Shown: piece by piece, positions 7,608-32,072 of the stretch
Numbering within the stretch: the first letter of the stretch is position 1
Layout of the letters: each line of letters starts with the position of its first letter
IMG/VR virus record: IMGVR_UViG_3300028571_000071
Location: 1-32,072 of that record
Direction: 5' to 3' (one strand)
Length of the DNA stretch: 32,072 nt
Source: a virus
Taxonomy: Duplodnaviria > Caudoviricetes
The notes under the pieces: model-generated
Database searches by the model: none
Told to the model about the DNA's origin: nothing
Seen by the model: the letters and a program-made list of their open reading frames with translations, nothing else
Position numbers and translations under genes: made by a program

Positions 7608-7622
7608 TTTTCAAAGCAGGGA

Positions 7623-8381: not shown

Positions 8382-8405
8382 GGTATGGTTTTTTGGTTAC
8401 TTGGA

Positions 8406-9196: not shown

Positions 9197-9197
9197 C

Positions 9198-9614
9198 TCA
9201 GGGCTCGGGAGTGGGCTCCGTGATGGTGACGGTTCCGTCTTGGTTTTTCGTGTGGGCAGGAACGCGAGCAGCCAGGGCATCAAGTTCGGTCACAGATGCT
9301 GTGTCGCCGCAGGCGAGCAGCAGAGCGCGGATTGGAGCCATGAAGGATTCGTAAAGCGTGAAAAGCTCAACAGCCTTCGGTCCGAGGGCCTGCGCGGTCG
9401 CGACGTTGGCAGCGTAGTCCTCCGACCAGAGATCGGTGATCGAGTGCCGCAGCCCGCCGAGGATGGAGTTGCGGAGGCCCTGCGCGTTCTCGGCCGCACG
9501 GATCGCCCGGGCCTGTGCGGCGGGGATCGGCGGATCGGTGAGGAGCGACTGAGCGGTTGCGGTGAGGGTGAGCGCGACCACACAGGCCGCGAGGAGTGCG
9601 ATGGTTTTTTTCAT
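9198..9614 (-). CDS. Predicted secreted protein (138 aa)
   Basis: Sec-type signal MKKTIALLAACVVALTLTATA-Q. Confidence 0.7.
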   Translation of the reverse strand: MKKTIALLAACVVALTLTATAQSLLTDPPIPAAQARAIRAAENAQGLRNSILGGLRHSITDLWSEDYAANVATAQALGPKAVELFTLYESFMAPIRALLLACGDTASVTELDALAARVPAHTKNQDGTVTITEPTPEP

Positions 9615-9627
9615 ATTGTGAGTGGCG

Positions 9628-17664: not shown

Positions 17665-19073
17665 ACGAGCACCGCCTCAAAGTTTGTGACCGTCTTCCCC
17701 GCATGCAGCGCCAGCGCCAGCGCCCAAAACCTATCGCAGTGGCCATTCTTCCCGCGCTCACCGGCGAAGCGGATGTTCCCGCTCGCGGTGGTTTCCTTGC
17801 GAATTCCGCGCAGGTCGGAAAATATCGTCTGGTTGTCAGGGATGCGGATTGACCGATCCTCGAAGGCCGCTCGCACCGGATACGCCAGCTCTTCCTTTAC
17901 CGGGCCTGTGAAATGCAGCCCCTCGACTTTGTAGGTGCCGAACCTCTTCTGTGCGCGCTCAGCGAACTGTCGCCCGATCCCCGTCTGGTCGATGCAGCAG
18001 CGCCGCACCTGCGGGAGTGCCAGCACAGAATACAGCGCAGCCTCCTGCGTGTCGAACGTCTGCGCCTTCAAAACGATAACCCGGCGCGTGAGATTGATCC
18101 CGCTGATCTTCTCAAACACCCAGATCACCGTCAGGTCATGATCGCGGCCCACGTCCACGCCGACATAGAGCGGGTTTTTGCTGTCGAGCAGATCCGTCTC
18201 CCATTGTTCGCCGGTCGGATATTTGCACCCGTCGATCAGCTCATAGGAAAGAAACGCCGAAGCATCATCGCTAGGAACGCACATGTATTCCTGCGCGAAA
18301 GATTCCTCATCAGGGCATCCGGCCTTGACGAAGTTGAAATAGTCGCCCTCGTCCATTTGCTGGCGAGGATCTCCGGTGGGCAGCTTGCTCTGCAGCTTGT
18401 AGAGGAACCCGTGATCCAGCGCGGTTTGAAGCGTGACCGTATGCAGAGAAATCTTCTTCGGGTTTCCCTTGTCCTTGATCTCAGTGACGAGCTTGTTGAA
18501 GAAATTTGCCGATCCGCGATGGGTCGAGATGATATCCATCGATCCGCCCCACGTGATGCCGGGGTATGCGATGGAGTAAAGTTTGCGGGGATCGGGGTGC
18601 AGGGCAAACTCATCCAGGCGACGCGGCCCGCGCTTGCCCGCCTGGGCATCGGGATTACTGGACATGCTGTGCGTCCGCAGGCCATTGGCGAATTGCAGCA
18701 CGTAGGCACTGTGCCCGTCGTCATCAATCACCTTCTCGCCAAGATCCTTCGCAGCGAGATTCAGCAGCCCTGCAAAGCTCTTGCAGTCCTCCAGAAATAG
18801 CCGTGCCTGGATATCGTCACGGGAGGACACCCACGAATCCAACCGGGCATCGACCTGGCTTTGTGTCCGCACGTCCTTGTAGGCGCTCGCCCAGGAGATC
18901 CCGATCTGCCGGGCTTTCTCCATGAGCGTGAGTTGTGCCGGGTCGAGAACATAGTCGCTCTGGTATTTGAGCAGGAGCGTGTCACGCGTCGGGAAAATCT
19001 TGCAGAGCCCGCCGAAGGTTTCCGGCACATAGTCCGGCCGCTTCGTGGTTACATGGGATGCAGGCGAGATCAT
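17661..19073 (-). CDS. Terminase large subunit (Mu gp28-like)
   Basis: EKARQIGIS, LDEFA, IISTH, FAQEYMC, VGVDVGR..D, IDQTGIG, HCDRFWALALA. Confidence 0.93.
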   Translation of the reverse strand: MISPASHVTTKRPDYVPETFGGLCKIFPTRDTLLLKYQSDYVLDPAQLTLMEKARQIGISWASAYKDVRTQSQVDARLDSWVSSRDDIQARLFLEDCKSFAGLLNLAAKDLGEKVIDDDGHSAYVLQFANGLRTHSMSSNPDAQAGKRGPRRLDEFALHPDPRKLYSIAYPGITWGGSMDIISTHRGSANFFNKLVTEIKDKGNPKKISLHTVTLQTALDHGFLYKLQSKLPTGDPRQQMDEGDYFNFVKAGCPDEESFAQEYMCVPSDDASAFLSYELIDGCKYPTGEQWETDLLDSKNPLYVGVDVGRDHDLTVIWVFEKISGINLTRRVIVLKAQTFDTQEAALYSVLALPQVRRCCIDQTGIGRQFAERAQKRFGTYKVEGLHFTGPVKEELAYPVRAAFEDRSIRIPDNQTIFSDLRGIRKETTASGNIRFAGERGKNGHCDRFWALALALHAGKTVTNFEAVLV

Positions 19074-19624
19074 AGAAGCTTGGCAGCCTCCTCGATTGTT
19101 TTGAGCGTCTCGGCCGTCAGCCCGCCCTTGGTCTTCAACCCTTCCAGTGCCGCCTTGGCTTTCGCCGCGTTGTCTTCCAGCAGGACAACCCGCCTGGTCG
19201 CCAATGCGAGCTTCCGGTTTTCCAGATCCGCCTTCGTTCGCGCTGAGTCCTGGGCGAGCTTCAGATGCTCCAGGCTCACAAACGTGTCCGCATCCCCCGA
19301 GTCCAAGGCTTCCAGGGTGAAGATCGATTGTGCCAACTTCCGGACGTGCTCCGGCTCCATGTCGGGATTCCGCTGCTGCAGGAGTTCCGCGACCTGGTTC
19401 GCTCGCGATGCGGCTTTGGAAAACCGCTGCTGCAGCCCATACCAGGAGACAAACTCGGAGAGCGTGGACATGGAGACCTTGAGCCCATCCGCCGCGAGCT
19501 GCTCGCGAGCGTAGGCCAGCCCACCGGGATGCTCCTCCGTTTTCTGCGTGCGCGCCCAGGCAATGATTTGCTCCTGCCGCTCCTCGGGCAGAATCTTCAG
19601 CTTGGAGTCGGATCTGGGTTTCAT
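19070..19624 (-). CDS. Mu gp27-like (DUF3486-type) protein, probable terminase small subunit
   Basis: SKLKILPEE N-terminus with HTH, GLTAET C-terminus; directly upstream of TerL. Confidence 0.75.
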   Translation of the reverse strand: MKPRSDSKLKILPEERQEQIIAWARTQKTEEHPGGLAYAREQLAADGLKVSMSTLSEFVSWYGLQQRFSKAASRANQVAELLQQRNPDMEPEHVRKLAQSIFTLEALDSGDADTFVSLEHLKLAQDSARTKADLENRKLALATRRVVLLEDNAAKAKAALEGLKTKGGLTAETLKTIEEAAKLL

Positions 19625-19894
19625 TCACGCGAGGCCCTCCGTGGCGAGGAAGTCCCGGCCCTCGGCCGTGATCTTCCATTCCCGATTTTCCGGGGAGATA
19701 ACCTTGCCCTCCAGGGCGACGAATCCTTTGTCGATCAGGTATTGCACCTCGGCCCGCAGATCGTCGGCGTCGAGCTGACGCAGTTGCGGAGGTAGGCCCA
19801 TGCGGATGCCATCCATCGGCACGCCGTAACCGCGCGCCATGTTGATGGTGGAGAGGATGAGCAGTCGGAGGTTTTCGCGTTGCTTCGGGTTCAT
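19625..19894 (-). CDS. Mu gp26-like winged-helix protein
   Basis: RLLIL...LRAEVQYL..KGFV...ITAEGRDF; synteny. Confidence 0.75.
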   Translation of the reverse strand: MNPKQRENLRLLILSTINMARGYGVPMDGIRMGLPPQLRQLDADDLRAEVQYLIDKGFVALEGKVISPENREWKITAEGRDFLATEGLA

Positions 19895-20307
19895 GCTTTG
19901 AGCCTTTCCAAAATGCGGTCGATCTTTGCGCTCTGGACCGCGAGCGTGCTGTTTGTGGTCCCGGTCCGCTCGTCGAGCGCGGAGACCTTCTTGTCGATAT
20001 CGTTGATTCGATTGTGGATGTTGATCGCCCGCTCTTCTCCGGCGTCGATGATCTCCGTTTTGTCGCTTTGCATCGTGCGTTCGATACGCTCTGTGCGTGC
20101 TTCCAGCGCGACCACGCGGCGCTCCATGTAGCCGCAGTGCTCGACATGCTCGGCCTTCGTTAGCACGTCTTTTTCATGCTGCACCCGCAGCGGCTGTTGG
20201 ATCGTCCGCATGCCACTCTTGCCCGTGAGCACCGCCCAGGCCGTCACTGCGTTTCCCAAAAGCACCACGACCCCAATGGCCAAAGTTAAAAACTCGCCCT
20301 GGTTCAT
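19891..20307 (-). CDS. Mu gp25-like membrane-anchored coiled-coil protein
   Basis: N-terminal TM helix plus coiled coil; ATGA-coupled start at 20307. Confidence 0.65.
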   Translation of the reverse strand: MNQGEFLTLAIGVVVLLGNAVTAWAVLTGKSGMRTIQQPLRVQHEKDVLTKAEHVEHCGYMERRVVALEARTERIERTMQSDKTEIIDAGEERAINIHNRINDIDKKVSALDERTGTTNSTLAVQSAKIDRILERLKA

Positions 20308-20837
20308 TGTTCCATCCCTCCCTCGTTGAGCCGGGCAACGGCCCATAGGTGAATTGCTTTCGCGCGGCGCAGCCAGCCCTTGAGGAACCGGCTCATCCTT
20401 GGTTTCGTGTGAGCAAGGTTCATGTAAAAGAGTTCCCTTTGAGCGGAGAGTTTCAGCAGGAGCTTCCCGGCCTCTCCTCGCGTGATCATGGCGTTGGCGT
20501 TTGCCAGAGTCTTGCTGCCGACAACCCCATCCACCTGCTTGAGGCCGAGCGCCCTCTGCAGGCACTTCGCGGCCTGGGATTCCCCGGCGTTCACCGCGAG
20601 ATCGAAATAGACAAAGGAGACCGGAGCCGGGAAGTGGGCGGCGGCAGATTTACCGAACTCCGCAAGGTAGATCCGCTCGGCACCGGCCTTCGTGAGCGAC
20701 TTGATGTCCACACCTGGATGCGACCGCTGGTCGATCCCGAACTTTGTGGCCCCGCCCGGATCTGCCGGATCGTTTTCAAAAACCGTGCCCTCAAATTCCA
20801 TGAGCAGCTCGAAGTAATCTTTCCAGAGCGCGTGCAT
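20304..20837 (-). CDS. Endolysin, glycoside hydrolase family 108 with peptidoglycan-binding domain
   Basis: FEG..ENDPADPGGATKFGI, FDLAVNAG, LQRALG..VDGVVG, FLKGWLRR. Confidence 0.92.
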   Translation of the reverse strand: MHALWKDYFELLMEFEGTVFENDPADPGGATKFGIDQRSHPGVDIKSLTKAGAERIYLAEFGKSAAAHFPAPVSFVYFDLAVNAGESQAAKCLQRALGLKQVDGVVGSKTLANANAMITRGEAGKLLLKLSAQRELFYMNLAHTKPRMSRFLKGWLRRAKAIHLWAVARLNEGGMEQ

Positions 20838-21055
20838 TAGAATGTGCCCTCCCATTTAATGGGCCACTTCCCACCGCGCAACGGCCAGCCGGGCGTGATA
20901 CGTGGTAGCCAGGAGTTGCGTCGCTCGGGAACGGATGTCCCGATCTGGACCACACCGGCACGCTCCATTTCAGCGTAGCGCTCGACGCGCCATTGCTCGC
21001 GCGCTTCCGCGTGAAAGGCCAAGAAGCCCCAGAATATCATAGTGAGCTTCTTCAT
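20837..21055 (-). CDS. Small lysis-region protein (72 aa)
   Basis: Coupled at both ends; hydrophobic N-terminus. Confidence 0.55.
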   Translation of the reverse strand: MKKLTMIFWGFLAFHAEAREQWRVERYAEMERAGVVQIGTSVPERRNSWLPRITPGWPLRGGKWPIKWEGTF

Positions 21056-21432
21056 TTCGGAGCGACCCACCAGAGGACCAGGCATGTGATCGCAAACCAA
21101 AAGCATGCGATGCCAGCCATTGAAAAGACCACGGACCACCGAACCTGCCCGGCGCGCTTCCCGCGCCGCACCTCGGCCCTTGGATTGAACGGCCCCCCCG
21201 GCCGCGTTAGCTTGAGCTTGTGCCGCGCGTCGATGCGGCCGTAGATCGCCAGCCCGGCACCAACCGTGTCCAGGCAAAGCGTGAGGATGTCGGTCAGCTC
21301 CGCGTCGATGATATCGACCTTCGCCGCCCGCAGGATCTGCGAGAGCAGCATCACGGCCACGCCGATGATCGTGCGGGATTGCCACCAGGGTTTTACCAGG
21401 GGCGCTCCGTAGGGTCCGCCTCCGTCTTTCAC
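21052..21432 (-). CDS. Holin-like membrane protein
   Basis: GTG start overlapping the upstream stop; KPWWQSRTIIG motif; about three hydrophobic segments. Confidence 0.65.
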   Translation of the reverse strand: MKDGGGPYGAPLVKPWWQSRTIIGVAVMLLSQILRAAKVDIIDAELTDILTLCLDTVGAGLAIYGRIDARHKLKLTRPGGPFNPRAEVRRGKRAGQVRWSVVFSMAGIACFWFAITCLVLWWVAPK

Positions 21433-21725
21433 CGGGACTCCTCCAGCTTTTGAAGTGCCAGCTCGATGGCCAGATTCACAGCCCGTGCAGAGGCGTTGAT
21501 TCCGGCCTGCAGCGCCGCTGCCTTGATCGCGTCCGCCGCCGCCGCGCGCTTCTCCGCGCCGCTCTTCGGCGAGTCCGCCAGGCCGCTCACCACATCCAGC
21601 GCAATCGGCAGGAGCGCTGTGAGCAGCCCGGACAACGAGTCCGCCAGGATCGGCAGCAAAAAGGAGATGAGGGTTTTCGACGCGCCCGTCAGCCAGGCCA
21701 GGGTATTGAGGAGTGCTTTTTTCAT
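21429..21725 (-). CDS. Holin-like/lysis-associated protein (98 aa)
   Basis: Amphipathic N-terminus, SGAEKR..A motif, NLAIELAL. Confidence 0.6.
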   Translation of the reverse strand: MKKALLNTLAWLTGASKTLISFLLPILADSLSGLLTALLPIALDVVSGLADSPKSGAEKRAAAADAIKAAALQAGINASARAVNLAIELALQKLEESR

Positions 21726-21786
21726 TTGATGATTGCAGGGGTGGAGAGCGGAGCGCCCTTCGCATGAGCAGGCACACAGCCAAAGA

Positions 21787-21822
21787 GGGCGGCGGTGGAG
21801 AACAAAAAAACCACCGCCGCCC
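21787..21822. repeat. Perfect 12-bp inverted repeat upstream of the lysis genes
   Basis: GGGCGGCGGTGG-N12-CCACCGCCGCCC. Confidence 0.8.
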
Positions 21823-21957
21823 CTGCTACGCTTCCCCCCGAAAAGAAACCGGACGCGGCTGCGATGAACTCCCCACCACGAGGCACAGCCGCGCCGGAAG
21901 AAATTGCGCGGCTCACTTGGCTTGCCCTCCTTTTGGCGAAGAGACAGGCTGAGCCAC

Positions 21958-22206
21958 ATGGACTACAATCTTCCCGCATCCTTCGGAAATCATGGCGCTG
22001 ACATCCTCGCAAAGGCGGGCTGGATCGACGCCAGCTTGATAAAACAAGGCGCACTCCGGGTCCGATGGACCGACAAGGGCCGCGCCCGCGCCGCTCAACT
22101 CCTCGACCTTCTCGCCGAGTTGGAAGAGCACGGTCAATCCCTGGACTGCGAGACGCTCGAAACGGTTTACGCGATTTGCGGCATGAACGATCCGCGAACG
22201 CCGTAG
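21958..22206 (+). CDS. Hypothetical 82-aa protein, opposite to the late arm
   Basis: Phage-like codon usage; winged-helix-like VRWTDKGRARAAQLL. Confidence 0.55.
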   Translation: MDYNLPASFGNHGADILAKAGWIDASLIKQGALRVRWTDKGRARAAQLLDLLAELEEHGQSLDCETLETVYAICGMNDPRTP

Positions 22207-22389
22207 GAGATCCGCTCCAAAATCCGCACGCTCACGCAGAGTAGCCGAAACATCGTCCCATTTTTCAGCTTTCAGCTTTCCGCCTTCAGCTTTATGCTTT
22301 GGCTGCGTCTTGGTGGTGGCCGCGTTCATGTGGCAGCAACACTGCCACGACGACAAAAAACCCGTAGGGCTAGACCGGAATCACCGGAC

Positions 22390-22503
22390 TCAGCCGATGA
22401 AAATGCAGATCAGCAAAAAGCGCGAGGAGGAGACTTCCACATCCGCCCGCGCGCCGCAGAGCAGAAGAATTGAGAGGCAGACTGTCGTCAGGAGCGTTTT
22501 CAT
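22390..22503 (-). CDS. 37-aa hydrophobic peptide coupled to the repressor-like gene
   Basis: ATGA overlap at 22500-22503; MKTLLTTVCLSILLLCGARADVEVSSSRFLLICIFIG. Confidence 0.45.
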   Translation of the reverse strand: MKTLLTTVCLSILLLCGARADVEVSSSRFLLICIFIG

Positions 22504-22856
22504 TTGTCAGGTTTTCTTTTCCCCCGCTTGCCTTTCGGCTTCTCCACAGGCTTCTGCACGTGGGCACCAGAAGCTGATGACAAATTTTCAATGTGCCCAA
22601 TCGCCACTTTGTTCCCCGTCTGGTTGATCGTCACCTTTTTCGGACGACCTCCTTTTCCTGCGCGTGACGGCGCGGCTTTCAAGCTGGCAGAAACACGGAT
22701 ATTCATTTCCTCAAGTCGCTTGTAAACGGCGTCACGGATAAATGTAGAGCGATCCGAAAAGCCGAGCTTTGGAAAAGCTGCATCAATTTCATCGCGAAAC
22801 TTTTCATCCATCATCACTAAAACTCCGCGCTGGTCGATTGATCTGACGTTCGGCAT
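22500..22856 (-). CDS. Ribbon-helix-helix regulator, probable repressor
   Basis: GVLVMMDEKFRDEID...SDRSTFIRDAV CopG/NikR-like pattern; divergent from the early operon. Confidence 0.75.
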   Translation of the reverse strand: MPNVRSIDQRGVLVMMDEKFRDEIDAAFPKLGFSDRSTFIRDAVYKRLEEMNIRVSASLKAAPSRAGKGGRPKKVTINQTGNKVAIGHIENLSSASGAHVQKPVEKPKGKRGKRKPDK

Positions 22857-22934
22857 GGGTGCATATAAAATCTTTTTTCATTTTCCCGCAATTTTTTTCT
22901 TGCGTGGTGTATATGCTGGGCATATAGCGAGTTT
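22857..22934. promoter_or_regulatory. Back-to-back promoters and operator repeats of the lysis/lysogeny switch
   Basis: Rightward TTGCGT-17-TATAGC (22900-22928); leftward TTGCGG-18-TATATG (22891-22862); three GKGYATAT repeats. Confidence 0.6.
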
Positions 22935-23129
22935 ATGCAAACAAAACAACGCCACCGGGGAGCACTTTCCAAAAGCAGCTCAAAAGCAGTCCTGGTGTAT
23001 TTCCCGAAACACCAGATGCCGTTGATCGATGAGGCCGTGAACATCACGGACACCGACCGATCGAAATTTATTCGCGGGGCAGTCCGTCAAGCACTCGACC
23101 GTCTCAGCCTTCCAGTCCGCGCCGCCTGA
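22935..23129 (+). CDS. Ribbon-helix-helix regulator in the Ner/Cro position
   Basis: AVLVYFP...IDEAV...TDRSKFIRGAVRQAL. Confidence 0.8.
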   Translation: MQTKQRHRGALSKSSSKAVLVYFPKHQMPLIDEAVNITDTDRSKFIRGAVRQALDRLSLPVRAA

Positions 23130-23189
23130 TCACCTTCGCCACGGGGCGGGCCATCCAATGCGCCCCACCACTTTTCAAAACCACAAACA

Positions 23190-23531
23190 ATGAGCGACAC
23201 ACAACCTTCCTTCGACTGGCTCATTCCAACGACAAAAGAACTCCTGCGGCCCGAAGAATGCGCCCGCTACCTCGACCGCTCCCTTGATTTTGTGGATGCC
23301 ATGATTGACGAGGGGAAACTGGAATGGATGGCCCCCACCGGGCGCAAGGTCGAACGTAAGAGGATCACACGCCGCAGCCTGCTCCTCCTCATCCTGGAGC
23401 AATTCCGTGCCGATCCTGAACTCTGGTTCGAGCGCTACGCCGCCCTCCTCCACCGCTGCTCAGCTCACCAGCTCACCCGCCTCATCGCCGAGGCCACCCG
23501 CCTCCGCTCAAAAAAACTCACCACACTATGA
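23190..23531 (+). CDS. Excisionase/MerR-like HTH DNA-binding protein
   Basis: LLRPEECARYLDRS..FV..MIDEGKL...RITRRSL. Confidence 0.75.
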   Translation: MSDTQPSFDWLIPTTKELLRPEECARYLDRSLDFVDAMIDEGKLEWMAPTGRKVERKRITRRSLLLLILEQFRADPELWFERYAALLHRCSAHQLTRLIAEATRLRSKKLTTL

Positions 23532-23749
23532 AAACCACAACCGCACATGGGAAAAAACCCGAACAAAAATACCAAGCATCAGCGAAGGCTGTCGCCGACT
23601 ACATCCGGCGACTGTGCCGTGTTCATGGCGTCAACCCAAACGTCCTCTCAAACATCGAAATCGAGCGCGGATCGTGGGCCAGGAATACCAGCGCGGGCCA
23701 AGGAATGACCGCATCCGAAGCGGCAGAAAAGATGGAGGCCTCGAAATGA
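23528..23749 (+). CDS. Hypothetical early protein (73 aa)
   Basis: ATGA coupling at both ends. Confidence 0.6.
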   Translation: MKTTTAHGKKPEQKYQASAKAVADYIRRLCRVHGVNPNVLSNIEIERGSWARNTSAGQGMTASEAAEKMEASK

Positions 23750-24546
23750 AGACCCTCCAGCCCACCTCCACCGGGAATATTTCGGCAATGACCATCCCCC
23801 AGCTCGCCGAGGCGGGCAAGGCCCTCGACCGCGCGGGCGACCTCCATGAGAACACAGCAGGCATCTGCCGCCTCCTTCACGGTCTCGTGCTCATCGAGGC
23901 CAAGCGCAAACTGGAGCACGGAGCCTTCATGCCTTGGGTGAAGGAACATTTCCCGAACTCGTATCGGGCAGCAGCACAGCGCATGCAGGCTGGCAATGAT
24001 TTTCTTGCCACCGTCAGCGACAAGAAACTGGCCAAGAAGCTCAAATGTGCAGGCCCCTGCACATTTGACGCCCAGAGCCTGCTCCTCGGGGATCTTGCAA
24101 CCAACCTGCCCGAGATCAGCGGTGCCCAGCTCGACATGAGCAACCCGGTCGTGGAGGCCGCGAGCAAATACATCGGCAACCGCTCCTGGACCCAGCTCCT
24201 GCTCGACCTCGGCGACGCCCGCGAAAACAACGGAGGCAAGCGAACGCGGCTCAACGGAACGAAGCGGCGCACCGACCCGGAAAAGGAATTCGACGACGCG
24301 CTCAAAAAGGCGATGGACTGGTATAAGCTCGGCCTCGTCAGCCTCAAGGAAAACTACCTCCACAGCAAACGCCGCTGGGAAGTGCTCCCCGAGGTGGAAC
24401 TCGCCAACGTCGCCGACCTCGTCAAGCTCTGGGCCAAAAAACTCGACGACATCTGCCGCGCCCGGCACATCGTCCCCAGCAAGATCCGCGATTGGGACAA
24501 AAACTTGTCGCCCGCAGAACTCGGCCTCTCGGAGGACGGGAAATGA
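23746..24546 (+). CDS. DUF3102-like protein
   Basis: GLVLIEAKRKLEHGAFMPWVKEHF..SYRAAAQRMQ; typical just upstream of Mu-like transposases. Confidence 0.75.
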   Translation: MKTLQPTSTGNISAMTIPQLAEAGKALDRAGDLHENTAGICRLLHGLVLIEAKRKLEHGAFMPWVKEHFPNSYRAAAQRMQAGNDFLATVSDKKLAKKLKCAGPCTFDAQSLLLGDLATNLPEISGAQLDMSNPVVEAASKYIGNRSWTQLLLDLGDARENNGGKRTRLNGTKRRTDPEKEFDDALKKAMDWYKLGLVSLKENYLHSKRRWEVLPEVELANVADLVKLWAKKLDDICRARHIVPSKIRDWDKNLSPAELGLSEDGK

Positions 24547-26396
24547 CACTCGACGCCTACCAGCGCGAGAGGATCGGAACGCTGCGCCCGATCATGGAGG
24601 CACTCGAAGCCGCCGACCACCTGACCAGCGGACTCGCCGCCTTCTCAGCCCGCATCGGCTTTTCCAAGCAACGGCTGGAAATGCTCTTCTACTCCTGGCA
24701 GCGCGCGGGCGACGACGCACTCATCGACAAGCGCAAGCTCCCGAAGCCAAAGAAGAGCGCGGCAGATACCCTCCCCATCAGCGACGCCGAGCGCGCAGTC
24801 CTGCGCCGCCTCGTCGCGCAATGCGGCTCCATGCTCTACGGCATCGAAGCCTTCGCCGATGATCCCGTCTGCTCGCCCGAGATCCGCACCCTCATCATTT
24901 CGCGCCGCTCGCGCCGCAACTATCCCAAGGCCCTGCTGCGCGCCGCCCGTGTCACCGGCGAAGAGAGCGACCTCGCCCGGGGGCCGAAGCGGTTCAACCT
25001 GCACGTCGCCACGCAATACCGCGACAATGTCTGGGTGGACTCAGCCGGGGTCGAGCATCCGCTCACTGGCGGCGACCTCTTCGAGTGCGACGACATGAGC
25101 CTCAACCAGCCCTTCTGGTATGAGTGGCCCTACGGCGGGGACGAACTCTCCGACATGTTCGGCGTCCGCCTCGGCCGCCAGATGCTCGCCTGCATCGACA
25201 CCGCCACCGCCCGCTGGATCGGCTTCGATCTCATCGGTCGGGTCCGCGACGCCTACCGCGCCGAAGACATCGTCCGTTTCCTCGGCTCCATCTGCCAGTT
25301 CAACGGCATCCCGCGCCACGGGTTCCGCCTGGAGCGCGGCATCTGGAAATCCAAGGCCGTGCGCGGAGTCAAGGGCGTGAACGACGACAAGGAAAAGCAG
25401 GTCGTCGCCTCGATCTCCGACGCTGTCGCCCTCCACTACGTCCACAGCCCAAAAGCCAAAGGCGTCATCGAAGGCAGCTTCGACATGCTCCAGACCATCC
25501 TCTCCCTCGACGGCATCACCATCGGGCGCGAACGCGGAGAATACGAGAAGGCCACCGCCGCCATGCTCAAATGCACAGCCGGCCGCATGCATCCGAAAAA
25601 CGCTGGCTTCCCGCACATCAGCGATATCGCCGAGCGCGTCAACGGTGCGATGGAGAAGTTCAACCTCCGCAATAAAATGGGCCGCGTCATCCAGGGCGTG
25701 CCCATGGAAAACTTCGCTCGCGACATCGAGGCCCAGCCGCTCGCCGCGCTGCCCGACCAGCAGGCTTACCTCTTCCAGCCCTACCGCGAGATCCGGCCCA
25801 TCACCGGCGCCCACGTCCGCTGCAAGGTCGAGCACTACAACCATACCTTCTCCTTCGCCGTTCCCGGTGAACTTGCCCACCTCGGGCGCGGCTACCGGCT
25901 CCTCGTCTGCTTCGATCCCGCCAACCCGCATGCCGGAGCCCGCGTCTTCGACGCCGAGAGCAGCGACAGCAACCGCCTCGACTACGAGAGCAAGCACGGC
26001 CAGAGCTACGGCATCATCCCCTTCGAGCCCGACGCGCCCCAGCTCGACTACTCGGACCGCGCCAAGAACCGCACCAAAGGCGGATACGCCGGAGCCGTCC
26101 GCTCCGAGTTCCGCAACCTCGGTCTCCAGCAGGGCACGAACATTTCCCGAGTCAGCGACGGGCGCGGCAACTCCACCCAGATCGCACGCGGCGCACAGAT
26201 CGCCGCTATGGAAAATCTCCCAGCCGGTGACCCGCGCGCTGCAGAGGCCCTGCAGGCCCGCCGCACGTTCGTGGAATCCGGCGACCGCGCCACGGCCCGC
26301 AAGCTCCGCAAGGTCTCCAGCGCGGCCCTCCTGGACGACGACGAAAACGAGATGCCTGGCGCGCCTTCGCGCATCAGCTCCGAAGCCCTCCTTTAG
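24543..26396 (+). CDS. MuA-like DDE transposase (617 aa)
   Basis: FECDD, CIDTAT, GIP..FRLERG, PKAKGVIEGSF, VCFDP; followed by a MuB-like ATPase. Confidence 0.88.
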   Translation: MTLDAYQRERIGTLRPIMEALEAADHLTSGLAAFSARIGFSKQRLEMLFYSWQRAGDDALIDKRKLPKPKKSAADTLPISDAERAVLRRLVAQCGSMLYGIEAFADDPVCSPEIRTLIISRRSRRNYPKALLRAARVTGEESDLARGPKRFNLHVATQYRDNVWVDSAGVEHPLTGGDLFECDDMSLNQPFWYEWPYGGDELSDMFGVRLGRQMLACIDTATARWIGFDLIGRVRDAYRAEDIVRFLGSICQFNGIPRHGFRLERGIWKSKAVRGVKGVNDDKEKQVVASISDAVALHYVHSPKAKGVIEGSFDMLQTILSLDGITIGRERGEYEKATAAMLKCTAGRMHPKNAGFPHISDIAERVNGAMEKFNLRNKMGRVIQGVPMENFARDIEAQPLAALPDQQAYLFQPYREIRPITGAHVRCKVEHYNHTFSFAVPGELAHLGRGYRLLVCFDPANPHAGARVFDAESSDSNRLDYESKHGQSYGIIPFEPDAPQLDYSDRAKNRTKGGYAGAVRSEFRNLGLQQGTNISRVSDGRGNSTQIARGAQIAAMENLPAGDPRAAEALQARRTFVESGDRATARKLRKVSSAALLDDDENEMPGAPSRISSEALL

Positions 26397-26411
26397 CACC
26401 ACCACCACTTT

Positions 26412-27581
26412 ATGAACAAAGACACCACCACGTCACCCGAACCCGAAGACAACAATCAACCCGAGCCGCAGGCCAATTCTGGCAACAACGTGCGCGCGTC
26501 CTGGAACTTCTCGCTCCACGACATCCGCATGAATCTCGCGCATTGCTCACACGACGCGAAGGAGATCCTGATCGCCTGTTTCCTGTGGTGCATCGACGCG
26601 AAGCACCCGGTCAGCCGTCCGGAGTTCGCGAAGGCCATCGACTTCGACCCGTCCACGATCTACCGGATCTACTCGGGCAAATACATCAACGCCACGACAC
26701 GCGAGCGCCTGGAAGTCCCGCCGAAAATGGTGGATGCGTCGCGCGCCTGGCTGGCCCGGCAGCGCAAAGCCTACACGCCCATCGGAGAGTTCATCCTCAC
26801 ACCGACCGCCGAGCGGATCTTCCACGCCTGCAACCTGGCACGGGAATCCAAGACGCCGGTCTTCCTTTGGGGCCGCTCGCACATCGGGAAGACCTGGGCG
26901 CTCGAAAAATTCGCCGCCGATAACAACCACGGCCGCACGATCTACGTCCGCATGAAAGCGGCCACCGGCCTGGGCGGGATGGTGAAGCGGATCAACGAGC
27001 GCTGCGGAAATTCCGACAAGGCGAACACGGCGGATTCGATTGACCGCATCAAGCGCGCCCTCTCGCCCGACACGCTGCTGATCCTGGACGAGCTGCACCT
27101 CCTCCAATACACCTACCGGCTCAATTCCTTCTTCGCCTGTCTGGAAGTGATCCGGGAGATTTACGACGAGGTCGGCTGCGGGATGCTGCTCTGCGGCACG
27201 GAACTCCTCCTGGAGAAAATGCGCGGCGGCACCCACGGCGAGATGGAGCAGCTCCTGCGGCGCGGGGTCCATAAGTTCCACCTGCCGAAGATGCCGAGCA
27301 AGGACGACATCACCGCGATCCTCGGCCACTACGGGGTCGAGTTTCCGGCGAAGAAGAAAACCCTCAGCCTGATCGTGGACGGCGAGCACATCAACGAGAT
27401 CCCGTTCGACCTGCTGCGCCAGCTGGCCAAGGACAACGGCATCAAGGCGATCACCGAGCGCCTGCGCTATGCGGAGAAGATCGCCGCCAAGGCCCGCACG
27501 TTCACGACGATGGCCCACTTCGTGGAAGCCCACGTCCGCATCCAGTCCAACGGCGCAGTCGACAACTCGGATTGGGATTGA
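26412..27581 (+). CDS. MuB-like AAA+ transposition ATPase
   Basis: N-terminal HTH (STIYRIYSGKY), Walker A GRSHIGKT, Walker B LLILDE, LLCG. Confidence 0.92.
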   Translation: MNKDTTTSPEPEDNNQPEPQANSGNNVRASWNFSLHDIRMNLAHCSHDAKEILIACFLWCIDAKHPVSRPEFAKAIDFDPSTIYRIYSGKYINATTRERLEVPPKMVDASRAWLARQRKAYTPIGEFILTPTAERIFHACNLARESKTPVFLWGRSHIGKTWALEKFAADNNHGRTIYVRMKAATGLGGMVKRINERCGNSDKANTADSIDRIKRALSPDTLLILDELHLLQYTYRLNSFFACLEVIREIYDEVGCGMLLCGTELLLEKMRGGTHGEMEQLLRRGVHKFHLPKMPSKDDITAILGHYGVEFPAKKKTLSLIVDGEHINEIPFDLLRQLAKDNGIKAITERLRYAEKIAAKARTFTTMAHFVEAHVRIQSNGAVDNSDWD

Positions 27582-27586
27582 GCGCC

Positions 27587-27682
27587 ATGAACTACCAGCC
27601 AATCACCGCCGCCGAAATCCTCGCGCTGCGCAAAGCACTACCGGCCGTCGTCGCCTGGCTCCGCGCAAGGGAGGGGAAATGA
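27587..27682 (+). CDS. 31-aa ORF
   Basis: MNYQPITAAEILALRKALPAVVAWLRAREGK; ATGA-coupled to the next gene. Confidence 0.5.
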   Translation: MNYQPITAAEILALRKALPAVVAWLRAREGK

Positions 27683-28011
27683 TCGCGCTCCACATAGAAT
27701 CCCAGGACATCACCGACGCGATCTGCACCGTGTCACTCATGGGGCCGCACGTCGAATCCGCCGCCGAGGCGGCATTCATCCAGTGGCTGCGCGAACGCGG
27801 CTACAACTGCGACAAAGCCGAGGATTGGGAAACGCCCCGCGAGCTTTGCGAACGGCTGCACATCGGCTGTTCCTTCGTCTCCCAGGCACTCCGCCGCCCA
27901 AACTGCCCGAAGCCGCTCGACATCTCGCGCGGCCCCACCGGCCGCATCACCTACCTCCGCAGCACACCGGCCCTAGACGCCTTCCTCACAAAACATAAGT
28001 CCCATTCCTAA
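27679..28011 (+). CDS. Hypothetical protein with C-terminal HTH-like motif
   Basis: RBS GGAGGGG before ATG; TPRELCERLHIG.SFVSQAL. Confidence 0.65.
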   Translation: MIALHIESQDITDAICTVSLMGPHVESAAEAAFIQWLRERGYNCDKAEDWETPRELCERLHIGCSFVSQALRRPNCPKPLDISRGPTGRITYLRSTPALDAFLTKHKSHS

Positions 28012-28027
28012 TTCCAAATTCCAAATT

Positions 28028-28303
28028 ATGAAAAAAACACCACCTGCCGCCACAAGCGGCCCGAACATGACCCGCGAATACCGCAAGGAACTTCGCGCAC
28101 TCGAAACCCAGATCCGCCGCGCCTCGCGCGACCAGATCCGCCACCACCGCGCCACCCAGCGCGCAATCGCCCGCATCGAAAACGAAGCCGTCAAGCAGAT
28201 CCGCGCCATCAAGCGCGAGTCCGCCAAGATCGACAAAGGCACCCTCAAGCAGATCGCCGCATTCGCCAAACGCCGCGACATCCTCATCGGGAGGCTCAGC
28301 TAA
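28028..28303 (+). CDS. Basic coiled-coil protein (91 aa)
   Basis: ORF with phage codon usage; TAATG coupling. Confidence 0.7.
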   Translation: MKKTPPAATSGPNMTREYRKELRALETQIRRASRDQIRHHRATQRAIARIENEAVKQIRAIKRESAKIDKGTLKQIAAFAKRRDILIGRLS

Positions 28304-28782
28304 TGAACCTCGCGCCTACCGTTGATCGCGGCCTCGAAATCCGCGCCCAGATCGAGCAGCTCAAAGAAGAACTCTCCCTCATCGAGAGCACGCTCGAACT
28401 CGCCGCCCGCAAGGGCGAGCAAATCGACCTCGAAGACCCCGACCGCGAAGGCCGCCAGTTCCTCGCCAGGGGCACAGAGGCCATCGTCCCCGTCGTCCTC
28501 ACCGCAGACATCATCCAGGGCACATTCGCGGACGGCTCCCAGGCCCATACGAAGATCGCCACGGCCGCCGTCGGAAGGCTCGCCGAGTTCTACTGGCCCA
28601 CCACCACATGGAAGCTCCTGGCAAAATCCGGAAAGGCATTCCGCATCGAAGCCGCCGCCATCCTCGGAGCCGCCGCACCGGCCCTGATCACCGCCGCCAT
28701 CGCCCGCGACAAAAACGGGATCCCGAAATCCCAGATCAAAGTCGAGTGGAACCGCGCCGAAGAACTGCCAACCGCCAACTGA
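28303..28782 (+). CDS. Hypothetical early protein (159 aa)
   Basis: Coupled ORF; N-terminal coiled coil. Confidence 0.75.
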   Translation: MNLAPTVDRGLEIRAQIEQLKEELSLIESTLELAARKGEQIDLEDPDREGRQFLARGTEAIVPVVLTADIIQGTFADGSQAHTKIATAAVGRLAEFYWPTTTWKLLAKSGKAFRIEAAAILGAAAPALITAAIARDKNGIPKSQIKVEWNRAEELPTAN

Positions 28783-28801
28783 AAACCGCCAACTTCTTCC
28801 T

Positions 28802-28984
28802 ATGACCATCGAGATCACGATCCGCGAGATCTACCAGCTCATGTTTTGCGTCTATTCGCTCGGGCTCCTCACCGTGCTCGTCGGCTACACGCTCATCCGG
28901 ATCTGGCACGATTCGCGCGAGAACCGCCGCCGCCGCGAGCAGTTCCGCATCCACCGCCGCACCCCCTACGGCATCCGCGTATGA
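28802..28984 (+). CDS. Small single-TM membrane protein
   Basis: Hydrophobic stretch followed by an Arg-rich tail. Confidence 0.6.
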   Translation: MTIEITIREIYQLMFCVYSLGLLTVLVGYTLIRIWHDSRENRRRREQFRIHRRTPYGIRV

Positions 28985-29103
28985 CCCTCCGCGCCCTCAA
29001 CTGTCTCCTGCTGCTCATCGCCCTGCGCGAGGGGCAGCGGGGACGTTGCTGGAGGCCACGTCATTCCTAATTCCACATTCCACATTTCGCATTTTTCCAC
29101 CCC

Positions 29104-29838
29104 ATGCTAACTCCCAAACAAGAACAGAAATACTGGCGGACGTGGGCGAAGATCCTCGCCTGCCAGGGATGGGCTCACGAGACGAGCGCGAAAAAGGACC
29201 AGCGCCGCTATGCCACGCACATCATGTGCGGGCTCAAGAGTGAGGATGGCACCGCCCGGTCCATGAAGTCTTTCGTGAACCGTGATTTCTCGCGCTGGCT
29301 GGCCGCTACAGCTCACTTGTGCGACGAGGTGGAGGTCAGAGACCGGGATCGCGAAAACTCGGTGTGGCGCATCCGGCAGGATGCCAGGGCAGCGGGGCTC
29401 AGCGACGAATATCTTGCCGCCATCGCCCGCGATGTCTTCGGAACGAACGACTGGTGCGGGCTACCAGGTGATCAACTCATCAAGTTCCGGAACACCATCC
29501 ATAACCGCGCCGGATCTCATACTGGACACGACACCCGCACCGAGGCACCCGCGCAACCCCGGCGCAAATACACGCTCGACGGCGGCAGCAGATCTTTCAG
29601 TTCCCCCGCACAAGACTCTACCACGCTAAAGGAGGAGCGGCCTATGACAACACGGCGGATAAAGCCCGCCACCGTGACAGGTCCGATCCCTGTTGTGCCT
29701 CCCTCCCGGCCGCTTGGCTACTGCATGCACGCGGTCAATCCTCCCACGGCCGCGCCATCGCCCGCGCGCGGCCTTCCTGCCGACATCATCATCAACGAGG
29801 TCGCCCACTTCGCCGATCCGGAGGACGAGCCGTTCTGA
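29104..29838 (+). CDS. Hypothetical protein, weakly Mu gp16/GemA-like
   Basis: RY...CGLKS...SMKSF and GLSDEYL..I...FG...L..DQL patterns; position in the early region. Confidence 0.55.
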   Translation: MLTPKQEQKYWRTWAKILACQGWAHETSAKKDQRRYATHIMCGLKSEDGTARSMKSFVNRDFSRWLAATAHLCDEVEVRDRDRENSVWRIRQDARAAGLSDEYLAAIARDVFGTNDWCGLPGDQLIKFRNTIHNRAGSHTGHDTRTEAPAQPRRKYTLDGGSRSFSSPAQDSTTLKEERPMTTRRIKPATVTGPIPVVPPSRPLGYCMHAVNPPTAAPSPARGLPADIIINEVAHFADPEDEPF

Positions 29839-29841
29839 ATT

Positions 29842-30195
29842 ATGGATGCCGCCGCGCTCGCAACACAGATGGACCTATGGCTCCGCACCCAGCCGCGCTG
29901 GGTCAGCGGTGCGGAGATCTGTGAGCGCTTTGGCGTCAACGAGCGCCGCCTGCGCTCAGCTAACGGCAAGCCCGGCCTCCTGTCCTTAAACTGTGTGAGC
30001 AGCTCCACCCAGGGGTTCAAGCACATCCGGTTCGCAGCCACGCAGGAATTTTTCGAGTGCGACAAAGAAGACCGTAAACACTGCATCTCCCGATACCTCA
30101 CCCTGCGAGCACGCCGCAATGCCTGGCGGAACGAGCGCACCGGCAAGCGCCCCGAGTTCCGCGAACTCCACACCGGCCAACTGGTTTTCGTATGA
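29842..30195 (+). CDS. Winged-HTH protein, candidate transcription regulator
   Basis: WVSGAEICERFGVNERRLR...SSSTQGF. Confidence 0.65.
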   Translation: MDAAALATQMDLWLRTQPRWVSGAEICERFGVNERRLRSANGKPGLLSLNCVSSSTQGFKHIRFAATQEFFECDKEDRKHCISRYLTLRARRNAWRNERTGKRPEFRELHTGQLVFV

Positions 30196-30383
30196 ATCGC
30201 AAACCCTCCCGCGAATGGACCCGCCGACTCTGTCCCTCCTGCGCCCACCGCGTGATACAGACCGAGTTCGGCTGGTTCTGCCGATCCGTCCTATGCAGGA
30301 GATCATGGTTCTCGAAGAAAAAACCGCCGAACGCTGCCGGTCAGAAATCGCTGGCTTTCGCGGAACCTCCGTTTGAAAGCTGA
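30192..30383 (+). CDS. Small Cys-rich (zinc-ribbon-like) protein ending inside attC-like site 1
   Basis: CPSC...WFC..LC; ATGA-coupled. Confidence 0.55.
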   Translation: MNRKPSREWTRRLCPSCAHRVIQTEFGWFCRSVLCRRSWFSKKKPPNAAGQKSLAFAEPPFES

Positions 30384-30446
30384 TATGACGCAACCATCCA
30401 TCTCAACACCCACTGGCCAGCGATTTCCTGGACCGGCTTGTTGGGC
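30326..30446 (-). mobile_element. attC-like recombination site 1 (121 bp)
   Basis: Minus strand: R'' GCCCAAC-AAGCC-L'' GGTCCAGG-AAATCGCTGGC...GCCAGCGATT-TCTGACC-GGCAGC-R' GTTCGGC; two extrahelical bases. Confidence 0.85.
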
Positions 30447-30485
30447 AGGCCGGAAAAGAGCGTCGAAAAAAGATGAAAATAGTTC

Positions 30486-30514
30486 TTGCAATCAAGACAA
30501 GGTTTGAATAAAGT
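30486..30514 (+). promoter_or_regulatory. Sigma70-like promoter inside cassette A
   Basis: TTGCAA-17-TAAAGT with an A-rich upstream tract, 9 nt before ATG 30524. Confidence 0.65.
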
Positions 30515-30523
30515 AAGGGCGTC

Positions 30524-30805
30524 ATGAAAAACAACACCAACACACGCTCAGAAAAATACGCAGCCCACAAATCCGCCGCCGCTTTCCTGCTGGCTCAACC
30601 CGCTACCACCTCACGGAAAAAAGCGATCCTCCTCGTGACAAACGCAGAGGGTCGGCTCATGGCCGACATCGAAAACGGTCGCCAGTGGGGTGGCCGCCGT
30701 GGAGTCAAGCAGAACGGCGGAAAAGCCATCGCCAAGACCGAAGAGACGGTCGCCGCGATGAAAACCCTCAACCTCAACGCCGCCGCGTGGTTCTCCCAGG
30801 CATGA
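30524..30805 (+). CDS. Hypothetical protein (93 aa), cassette A gene 1
   Basis: Follows its own promoter; ATGA-coupled to the next gene. Confidence 0.7.
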   Translation: MKNNTNTRSEKYAAHKSAAAFLLAQPATTSRKKAILLVTNAEGRLMADIENGRQWGGRRGVKQNGGKAIAKTEETVAAMKTLNLNAAAWFSQA

Positions 30806-31050
30806 ACTACCGGGATGCTTACGACCGCGCCGACTGGACGAAAACGGATGTCCAGTTGGCGCGAAAATTCGGAGTCACCAAGCAGGCAATCCAAGCTGCG
30901 CGTAGGGTCAGGGGCATCGCCCCGACTCCGCACGGAGGATTAAGGAAAGGCGCTGGCAGAAAGCCATCCAAAAAGCGCCGTAAAAAGAAATGCGCACCAC
31001 GGCGGCCCAACGGCGCGGATGAGAGGCAGCTACCGGAGGAAAAACTATGA
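30802..31050 (+). CDS. HTH protein with GGLRKGAGRKP basic motif, cassette A gene 2
   Basis: TDVQLARKFGVTKQAIQAARR; stop lies in the loop of site 2. Confidence 0.7.
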   Translation: MNYRDAYDRADWTKTDVQLARKFGVTKQAIQAARRVRGIAPTPHGGLRKGAGRKPSKKRRKKKCAPRRPNGADERQLPEEKL

Positions 31051-31125
31051 TCGAAAAACGGTATGAAAGCGGGCGAGGACCGAAAGAGAACAGCGGTAGC
31101 TGTTCTCTCGATCCGATGGTTCGGC
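31005..31125 (-). mobile_element. attC-like recombination site 2 (121 bp)
   Basis: Minus strand: R'' GCCGAAC-CATCG-GAT(C)GAGAG(A)ACAGCTACCG...CGGTAGCTGCCTCTCATCCG-CGCC-R' GTTGGGC. Confidence 0.85.
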
Positions 31126-31388
31126 AATCTTCGCGGCAACTCTCTGTGCGGGTAGTCCCTGCGCTGTTCCGCGCCGTCAATCGCCTGTGCGAGCGTGACG
31201 GAATCACCCTCACGGCATTCGTGACGGCCTGCGTGTGGTTCGAGGTGCGCCGCCGCGCCCCGGCCTGCCACGACTGCCAACCCGGAGCGGCAACCCCGGC
31301 ACTCAACCAGCATGGCGACTGTGCGACGTGCGACGGTCTGGGTGTTGTTTTGCCGAACGCTGGGCTATGCGACCGGGACCGCTCATAA
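31047..31388 (+). CDS. RHH-like domain plus CxxC...CxxC zinc finger, cassette B gene
   Basis: QLSVRV.PALFRAVNRLCERDGITLTAFV; CHDC, CATCDG; starts in site 2, stops in site 3. Confidence 0.65.
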   Translation: MIEKRYESGRGPKENSGSCSLDPMVRQSSRQLSVRVVPALFRAVNRLCERDGITLTAFVTACVWFEVRRRAPACHDCQPGAATPALNQHGDCATCDGLGVVLPNAGLCDRDRS

Positions 31389-31451
31389 TAGACTCCGCCA
31401 TGCAAAACAACCTTCCCAGCGGTCCCGGTTCGCATCAGCCACTTGTTGGCC
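31352..31451 (-). mobile_element. attC-like recombination site 3 (100 bp)
   Basis: Minus strand: R'' GGCCAAC-AAGTG-GCT(G)ATGCGA(A)CCGGGACCGCT...AGCGGTCCCGGTCGCATAGCC-CAGC-R' GTTCGGC. Confidence 0.85.
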
Positions 31452-32072
31452 CTCTTCCGGTTCCATACTACGACGACGGTCTCATCACGATCTTCTGTGG
31501 GGACTCCCGCCGTATCGTGCCAACGCTGCCGAAGTTCGACCTGCTGCTCACCGACCCACCGTATGGCATCAACATCGCCAAGACGGGCAAGTTAGGCAAG
31601 GCGCGGTATGAACCCGCCGAATGGGACGCGAAGCAGCCGGAGCCGTGGGAACTGCAAATGCTCATCTCAAGCTGCAAGGAATCCATCATCTGGGGCGGCA
31701 ATTACTACGAGCAACTCCGCCGTGCCACATGCTGGCTGGTGTGGGACAAGAAAAACGACGGCCTATCCTTCGCCGATGCAGAACTCGCCTGGACAAACCT
31801 GCGCCGCGCCGTGCGCATGTTCCGGTGGATGTGGCATGGCTTAAAGGAAGGTGGCCCCATCAAACGCGTCCACCCCACGCAAAAGCCGGTGCAACTGATG
31901 GAGTGGTGCATCGGCAAGGCCAACAAGCCGCAAAGTCTCCTCGACCCCTACATGGGCAGCGGATCGTCACTGATCGCCTGCCAGCAACTCGGCATCCGCG
32001 CCGTGGGCATCGACATGCACGAGCCCTACTGCGCTGCCGCCGTCGAACGGCTCCGCGATAATCGGGCCAACG
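31400..32072 (+). CDS. Orphan N6-A/N4-C DNA methyltransferase (beta class), cassette C gene, stop beyond the window
   Basis: Hand-translated: LLTDPPYG, WDK, HPTQKPV.LM, LDPYMGSGSS; missing from the ORF track because it has no stop. Confidence 0.92.
   Translation, partial: MQNNLPSGPGSHQPLVGPLPVPYYDDGLITIFCGDSRRIVPTLPKFDLLLTDPPYGINIAKTGKLGKARYEPAEWDAKQPEPWELQMLISSCKESIIWGGNYYEQLRRATCWLVWDKKNDGLSFADAELAWTNLRRAVRMFRWMWHGLKEGGPIKRVHPTQKPVQLMEWCIGKANKPQSLLDPYMGSGSSLIACQQLGIRAVGIDMHEPYCAAAVERLRDNRAN
32064..32072 (-). mobile_element. Core (R') of a probable fourth attC-like site, truncated by the window end
   Basis: GGGCCAAC is the exact reverse complement of GTTGGCCC at 31445-31452; AAC is in frame with the MTase. 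Confidence 0.6.

Follow-up and report, generated by a model that had tools for sequence, protein, structure and literature searches.

The DNA analysed here, called the window, is a 32,072-nucleotide stretch of a tailed-phage record (Duplodnaviria; Caudoviricetes; IMG/VR record IMGVR_UViG_3300028571_000071), which ends at position 32072 inside an array of hairpin-bounded gene units that resembles the cassette array of an integron. Leftward head, tail and lysis genes extend to about 22 kb, and a rightward early operon runs from 23 kb. With a DDE transposase (a weak match, E 5e-6), a MuB-like ATPase, and head and tail genes, the record has the make-up of a Mu-like phage, in keeping with the transposable phage named in an initial annotation made from the letters of the window alone. 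The right continuation was taken from an overlapping contig, L003, which is 100% identical to window positions 16412-32072 and extends 2780 bp beyond them (L003 position = window position - 16411). This contig adds a complete fourth attC site, a fourth cassette and, 0.7-1.7 kb past the window end, an attI-like site and a gene for an integron integrase (IntI). The features are collected in Table 1.

Table 1. Features of the cassette array, its surroundings and a related cassette module (aa, amino acids; RHH, ribbon-helix-helix; HTH, helix-turn-helix)
Feature	Sequence	Position	Strand or orientation	Remarks
Mu-type transposase gene, early operon	window	24492..26396	+	phrog_310, E 5e-6, weak
MuB-like DNA transposition ATPase gene	window	26412..27581	+	phrog_296, E 6e-29; AAA_22 and TniB
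Terminal backbone early gene ahead of array	window	29842..30195	+	homologue in L165 directly precedes first attC
63-aa CxxC gene	window	30192..30383	+	in frame through site 1 core, stop within site 1
attC site 1	window	30326..30446	-	46.2 bits; core AAC 30330-30332 on plus
Cassette 1, 679 bp	window	30332..31010	+	site 1, promoter-like stretch, 93-aa gene 30524-30805, 82-aa gene 30802-31050 ending in site 2
attC site 2	window	31005..31125	-	44.7 bits; loop with overlapping stop/start ATGA, 31047-31050
Cassette 2, 347 bp	window	31011..31357	+	113-aa gene 31047-31388, possible RHH and CxxC motifs
attC site 3	window	31352..31451	-	47.9 bits; loop holds upstream gene's stop and methyltransferase ATG (31400)
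Cassette 3, 713 bp	window	31358..32070	+	N6/N4 DNA methyltransferase gene, 230 aa, ends in site 4; PF01555, phrog_67
attC site 4, first 8 bases	window	32065..32072	-	core AAC 32069-32071; whole site L003 15654-15754, 39.1 bits
Cassette 4, start	window	32071..32072	+	rest beyond window, L003 15660-16396, 737 bp
attI-like site	L003	16391-16430		core AAC at 16395; motif conserved in 22 loci
intI, 325 aa	L003	16431-17408	+	TIGR02249, 276 bits, cut-off 265; 2a3v best by sequence and fold
HTH cassette module	L347	324-1524	classical	
HTH cassette module	L349	3567-4330	classical	
HTH cassette module	L350	70-862	classical	
HTH cassette module	L352	1599-2476	classical	
HTH cassette module	L353	3424-4370	classical	
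HTH cassette module	L348	3488-4240	inverted	

The three imperfect hairpins lie exactly where the initial annotation had placed them, and the start of a fourth that it saw at the window end is present but begins at 32065, to be completed in L003. In each site, 4 bases and AAC are followed by a spacer of 5 bases, a stem with its loop, and a second spacer of 5-6 bases that leads to GTT with 4 bases; the extra bases are at minus-strand (top-strand) positions 16 and 23. This is the R''-spacer-L''...L'-spacer-R' plan of attC sites with its extrahelical bases, and at 100-121 bp the four sites fall within the attC range of 57-141 bp. PMC5027507 describes the same layout, with C usually at position 16 of the top strand. 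That base is C, C, G and T in sites 1-4, a departure from the usual C, and the best pairing of site 1 puts the second bulge at position 19-20. A relaxed position-16 base as a phage trait was considered and rejected, since G occupies it on the top strand in 31 of 64 bacterial-type sites as well as in 36 of 51 phage sites. Globally aligned, the sites are 54-67% alike; they are indeed not repeats, as claimed initially, yet "unrelated" overstated the case.

A scanner for attC geometry found exactly 3 sites in the 32 kb, all with the top strand on minus. On five block shuffles it gave 0-1 matches at its loosest setting and 0 at stricter settings, and in a class 1 integron used as a control it found 6 sites at the annotated ends of cassette genes. 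A covariance model was also trained on 64 sites, taken from bacterial-type arrays and the class 1 control (91.7% of alignment cells paired; both sides changed in 17 of 21 pairs). It scored the window sites at 47.9, 46.2 and 44.7 bits on the minus strand, with the next match at 11.1 bits and plus-strand readings at 11.1 bits or less, in agreement with the scanner on the architecture and polarity first proposed; site 4 was overlooked by the default filters and its score needed non-default ones. Folding as single-stranded DNA gave negative z-scores at all three sites (plus/minus strand: site 1 -4.1/-3.6, site 2 -2.2/-2.0, site 3 -4.0/-3.4), but the minimum-energy fold of site 2 differs from the recombinogenic hairpin. 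Judged by sequence and predicted fold, the three window hairpins are attC sites on the minus strand.

The intI gene lies 677 bp after site 4 in L003. The initial annotation had expected a recombinase either further right or in the host; an IntI-type tyrosine recombinase is found further right, in the identical contig. Its residues R132, K157, H257, R260, H283 and Y292 align with the catalytic set named for IntI1 (PMC2095811) and are invariant in 92 aligned sequences. The IntI-specific insertion (helix I2) is present in the alignment and absent from the Xer-like outgroup, and a structure model (predicted local distance difference test, pLDDT, 87) has a helix at 200-205 and strands at 220-231. 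The best sequence match is VchIntIA (2a3v; E 3e-50), which is also the best fold match of the model (template modelling score 0.79; other recombinases 0.64 or less). To the integrases listed in phage and plasmid collections the protein is 34-42% identical, and seven records in the GenBank phage collection have an IntI-like match, all at 34-39% identity.

We searched for this integrase in viral, metagenome and genome collections, the latter two scanned in part. Among 84 sequences selected for their likeness to it and placed in a FastTree tree, it falls into a clade of 25 (support 0.998) composed of 16 viral contigs, 8 metagenome contigs and 1 genome bin. Twenty-two loci were analysed, namely 21 of the clade and L175 (a partial gene, outside the tree); duplicates (L084, L086, L087, L168, L171) were left out, as were loci whose upstream DNA was short or whose integrase matched in part (L094, L099, L111, L119, L167, L173). 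A motif starting at AAC stands directly before intI in 22 of 22 loci, and the DNA to its left is unrelated; by its conservation this motif has the behaviour of attI, the insertion point of cassettes. The geometry of the platform is classical, with attI at the 5' end of intI and attC top strands pointing away from intI. No Verrucomicrobia-type LexA box was seen by eye ahead of intI. In one viral contig, L325, the attI motif occurs with no integrase match within 13.5 kb, and is possibly an orphan docking site.

Since intI adjoins the array in L003, this is not one of the clusters of attC sites lacking a neighbouring integrase (CALINs). Because L003 adds site 4, cassette 4, an attI-like site and intI, the locus reads as a complete integron rather than an integrase-less array; as far as its parts tell, it is a real integron that departs from the classical form only in gene orientation. 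We consider it very probable that a complete phage-encoded integron sits at the end of the early operon of this Mu-like phage, that its own IntI inserts and excises cassettes, and that the cassette genes lie on the opposite strand and are read from the early promoter toward intI.

Movement leaves a signature in cassettes: once a cassette is a circle, the bases at its far end come to pair with the inner end of its own attC. Such matched ends, each at 4 of 4 variable bases and including the pair across attI, are present in all four L003 cassettes; across the 22 loci 47 of the 51 cassettes have them (18 of 20 at attI), against 2 of 51 that match the partner faced inside the array. In contigs of four lake runs, breaks and changes of neighbour fall at attC cores, with loose ends at L003 cores 14598, 14947 and 15654, and the predicted junctions between AA and C hold up. 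X17 carries a variant of cassette 2 (11 differences) at a depth of 28.8, against 2-6 for the phage, with other DNA on both sides; X11 has other DNA after cassette 2, immediately past the core; and X10 has a joint omitting exactly 713 bp and an intI contig that starts at the attI core, preceded by 29 other letters. Among related phages the same intI and attI come with different cassettes, the variation in content that the initial annotation had led us to expect. These junctions in natural sequences suggest that cassettes move as units via circular intermediates.

The hairpins could instead be RNA elements (terminators, processing or coupling signals) between genes that are swapped by short-homology recombination, given that their loops contain stops and starts, and thus act at the RNA level, and that the AAC/GTT ends are short stretches of homology. 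Rfam gave no match at E 1 over 22000-32072, however, and none of 8 terminator-like matches coincides with a site, on which ground terminators were rejected. The bulges are located where IntI reads them, the matched ends track the cassette and not the hairpin as placed in the array (47 against 2 of 51), and the array is adjoined by intI and attI, all of which makes this account extremely unlikely.

The genes run against the cassette convention. By a rough amino-acid composition score, the 17 loci with an IntI at least 52% identical have 24 inverted, 0 classical and 9 unclear of 33 intervals, in support of the early claim that every gene is antisense to that convention and co-oriented with the early operon. 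Eight other viral loci (L100 and L101 among them) have 18 inverted, 7 classical and 14 unclear of 39, and 26 bacterial-type loci have 5, 50 and 34 of 89, respectively. The form of a classical array, with top-strand genes directed toward their own attC and expressed from the cassette promoter Pc, is thus absent; the sole minus-strand promoter-like match lies within cassette 4. Viral inverted arrays whose IntIs fall outside the clade of 25 were seen in L102, L109, L112 (14 sites) and L113, and inversion may have arisen more than once. Many bacterial loci (L217, L264, L275, L282, L285, L324 and others) combine a classical gene orientation with an array that lies on the strand of intI and downstream of it.

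The sites are also threaded into the reading frames. At 42 of 51 junctions the AAC core is a codon (Asn) in the longest upstream frame, with the TAA-type register at 9 and the third frame at 0. In 47 of 51 attC sites the AAC frame meets a stop inside the site, and at each of the 22 attI sites it does so within 12 codons; 36 of 51 sites contain an ATG for the gene that follows. Between one site and the next, this frame runs unbroken in 36 of 51 cassettes, as compared with 8 of 87 bacterial-type cassettes on the same strand.

Core to core, the cassettes measure 679, 347 and 713 bp, as originally reported, and 737 bp for the added cassette 4. Cassette 1, an exception in frame, carries a promoter-like stretch of its own (30486-30514), a feature of the initial annotation that matches by eye at 8 of 12 positions and is not among the calls of a promoter scan; its genes had no family match in profile searches, and an Atlas search with the 93-aa gene gave nothing usable. 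For cassette 2 the proposed RHH/zinc-finger product may serve as a lead only (NF041551 below cut-off; Atlas score 0.89), and among viral contigs only two identical ones matched its gene. The methyltransferase assigned to cassette 3 has the expected family match, and methyltransferase matches fix the coding strand in 12 of 20 arrays, this being the only strand scanned.

Cassette 4 contains a sigma70-like promoter, a 79-aa gene and an 81-aa HTH_3 gene. The promoter points into attI and intI and is overlapped by two inverted-repeat boxes (L003 15775-15830), likely operators for the HTH protein. A third frame of 249 codons (L003 15678-16427) runs from the ATG of site 4 through attI, overlaps both genes and stops 3 bases before the intI start; it was kept open in 1 of 5000 synonymous shuffles. 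Homologues of the HTH gene in other viral arrays are inverted in L348 and classical in L347, L349, L350, L352 and L353 (L354 duplicates L353), and the boxed promoter, a variable small gene and the conserved HTH gene form a cassette module found in both orientations. Neighbouring genes are mostly on the other strand in the four scored of the five classical loci. In all five the antisense frame through the core is open end to end; it has an ATG close to the following site and a stop within the preceding one, and was kept open in 0, 42, 63, 84 and 13 of 3000 shuffles; L355, where the model finds no site, has no end-to-end antisense frame, and L348 no site-to-site frame. These patterns are suggestive only of filler frames kept open across HTH cassettes, because the five loci are related and antisense frames in that register stay open easily. 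Such frames would be consistent with the finding that poorly translated cassettes reduce downstream expression (PMC11511950).

At the left edge of the array, the close relative L165 (8190-8720, compared with window 29842-30446) has its first attC directly after the last backbone gene; in the window and in L002 an additional gene, lacking a site of its own, comes between them. In the window this is the 63-aa CxxC gene, which is likely a cassette remnant that has lost its site. To the right, two more ORFs (open reading frames) follow the recombinase gene in L003. Position 18376, which ends in CA and near which contigs break, is the probable right end of the phage; no left end was seen. Contigs break at L003 18307-18377 in 4 of 4 lake runs, and the DNA past 18377 also occurs with a different left neighbour, as expected if the prophage junction and the empty host site are both present. 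Short tandem heptamer-like repeats were seen by eye between early genes (window 28005-28030 and 29065-29095). The window portal protein had no match in 5 related records.

The best sources of this DNA are lake-water and freshwater metagenomes, with no RNA data set among those listed, and the host is likely a Verrucomicrobiota bacterium, because an 86% identical IntI lies in a genome bin labelled Chthoniobacter. Homologues of the window transposase or ATPase lie upstream in 9 of the 22 loci besides L003; they also do so in a Mu-like prophage of genome G300, which has the same layout and two inverted cassettes. In L166, a 93% identical module sits behind an apparent DnaB-type helicase gene (by eye), with no transposase or ATPase homologue in 10 kb, and for this reason the IntI/attI module seems to move between phage types.

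The array might also be a piece of a host chromosomal integron, captured by a prophage as in Vibrio and Shewanella and now a passenger. Such captures have been published (PMC9892861), and the Chthoniobacter-labelled bin holds two copies of this IntI type. The clade is mostly viral, however, and only 2 of 401 host-class genomes match, one on two 2.5-kb contigs and the other in a Mu-like prophage that shares this layout; in bacterial arrays and in the Shewanella prophage the orientation is classical, and the cargo here is phage-type and in frame with the early operon. We therefore regard capture as very unlikely. Scarcely more probable, and still unlikely, is that the cassettes are real and moved mainly by a host IntI, with the phage enzyme idle or otherwise employed. 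This could draw on reports that unrelated IntIs recombine attC sites (PMC2095811; PMC9892861), on distant intI genes of the Chthoniobacter bin itself, one with two attC matches nearby, on homologues of cassette 4 in arrays with no intI within 5-8 kb, and on the altered hairpin of the phage IntI. Yet IntIs are specific for their own attI (PMC2095811), the end match at attI is found in nearly all loci, and the catalytic residues are invariant.

A phage integron working by its own IntI would operate as follows. IntI recombines the folded bottom strand of attC with double-stranded attI (PMC5027507, PMC2095811), the crossover falling between G and TT (PMC9892861). By analogy with this biochemistry, the phage IntI would bind the folded bottom strand, here the plus strand, with exchange between G and TT (AA and C on plus). 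Expressed within the early operon, it would insert circles at attI and excise between attC sites. Each cassette would start with its own hairpin, the newest lying next to intI and farthest from the early promoter, older ones nearer to it. A gene would take its last codons and stop from the following site or attI and often its start from the loop of its own site, so that any order would be translatable as a coupled operon. Pc would be unnecessary, as the cassette genes and intI would be read as the tail of the early operon; replicative transposition could, speculatively, be the source of single strands. What the phage likely gains is a quick way of exchanging small early genes, anti-restriction methyltransferases among them, by drawing on a phage-shared pool.

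A wider reading, to which we give somewhat less than an even chance, is that phages have an integron branch of their own, in which a virus-resident IntI/attI module passes from one phage type to another and takes inverted cassettes from a pool found in phages only. These cassettes would follow a translation rule: an unbroken frame would run from site loop to site loop, and wherever the real genes use a different frame or point the other way, a filler frame would stay open, carrying ribosomes to the downstream early genes and intI. If true, phage early regions would be a place where cassettes are made and traded.

Several observations weigh against a phage integron of this kind. Compared with IntI1, the phage enzyme has a hairpin shortened by 6 residues and RRWH in place of RRHH, so that its activity on attC cannot be taken for granted; in L166, intI and attI are present but no attC was detected. 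No circle junction was found in the contigs of 4 lake runs, from which rare forms are dropped, and the excised circles of 679, 347 and 713 bp anticipated at first did not appear; the idea that the phage acquires and shuffles early genes by attC-type recombination thus gains from junction switches and variable relatives and not from circles. The 713-bp joint occurs in 1 of 4 runs with only 25 letters on one side, and probably comes from a sister array (its site 4 differs by 6 letters) and not from clean excision. The arrays of L001, L003 and the window are identical over their shared extent, with no variation among them. Four of the 51 cassettes have no end match, 4 of 51 sites have a non-AAC core, and 15 of 51 cassettes, cassette 1 included, are not open from site to site. 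The training sites of the covariance model were chosen by the same scanner, so that the two tests are not independent in geometry, and the composition score behind the orientation calls is rough.

Integrons are known as bacterial tools and lately as stores of anti-phage defences. Phages appear to own an integron machine as well, and the genes it serves are early ones, often methyltransferases with a presumed role against restriction. This would be a precise mechanism for mosaicism in phage accessory regions, and it brings a new IntI clade with a sharply defined attI, suited to assays. The doubling of sites as stop/start couplers bears on the origin of cassettes and on how arrays stay expressed. 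Placed in a bacterial integron, inverted cassettes would have the wrong orientation; this implies that cassettes belong to two pools that are largely separate.

Mu-like transposable phages have a variable accessory region at the end of the early operon, and in B3 and BcepMu early and late genes are divergent. The present phage shares with them the transposase and ATPase followed by small early genes, whereas its variable region consists of site-specific cassettes with a dedicated recombinase. With complete integrons (class 1; the Vibrio cholerae chromosomal integron with VchIntIA) it has in common the IntI insertion, an attI that adjoins the 5' end of intI, the direction of the attC top strands away from that gene, the extra bases at 16 and 23, and matched ends. 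It differs in that genes lie on the bottom strand toward intI, intI is a co-oriented late member of the early operon, gene starts and stops lie inside sites in a fixed frame, and the IntI hairpin is shorter.

A survey of 10,705 phage genomes by Qi et al. 2023 (PMC9892861) yielded 17 CALINs, 3 complete integrons and one lone intI. A 2026 review (PMC13492144) cites, in its available part, only that work on phage integrons, and in our literature search (listings and the starts of abstracts, with subscription papers largely outside it) no inverted arrays or phage IntI clade were described. In L331 (KX853513, Virus Rctr41k; 4680-10101) an IntI-like gene is annotated xerD, with 5 attC-model matches (19-40 bits) downstream on the same strand as its genes; this phage is not listed among integrase-bearing phages in Table 1 of PMC9892861. 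We re-examined the orientation in two published cases, Shewanella prophage M16-3 and Tetrasphaera phage TJE1, and both are classical. Like M16-3, the Vibrio anguillarum phages and P1 with class 1 integrons (PMC9892861), the present phage holds intI, attI and cassettes in its genome. Those integrons are described as host-type or class 1, whereas the present IntI belongs to a mostly viral clade and its cassettes have the inverted orientation; in M16-3 all 7 model matches share the strand of the genes, and intI is divergent, with a LexA box ahead of it. Phage CALINs such as that of TJE1 share the attC-bounded small phage genes and orphan DNA methyltransferases, and their sites recombine with IntI1 (PMC9892861). 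That published phage CALINs are unnoticed inverted arrays fails for TJE1, whose 3 sites score on the same strand as its genes. TJE1 has no integrase, whereas here the platform is complete and the genes are antisense.

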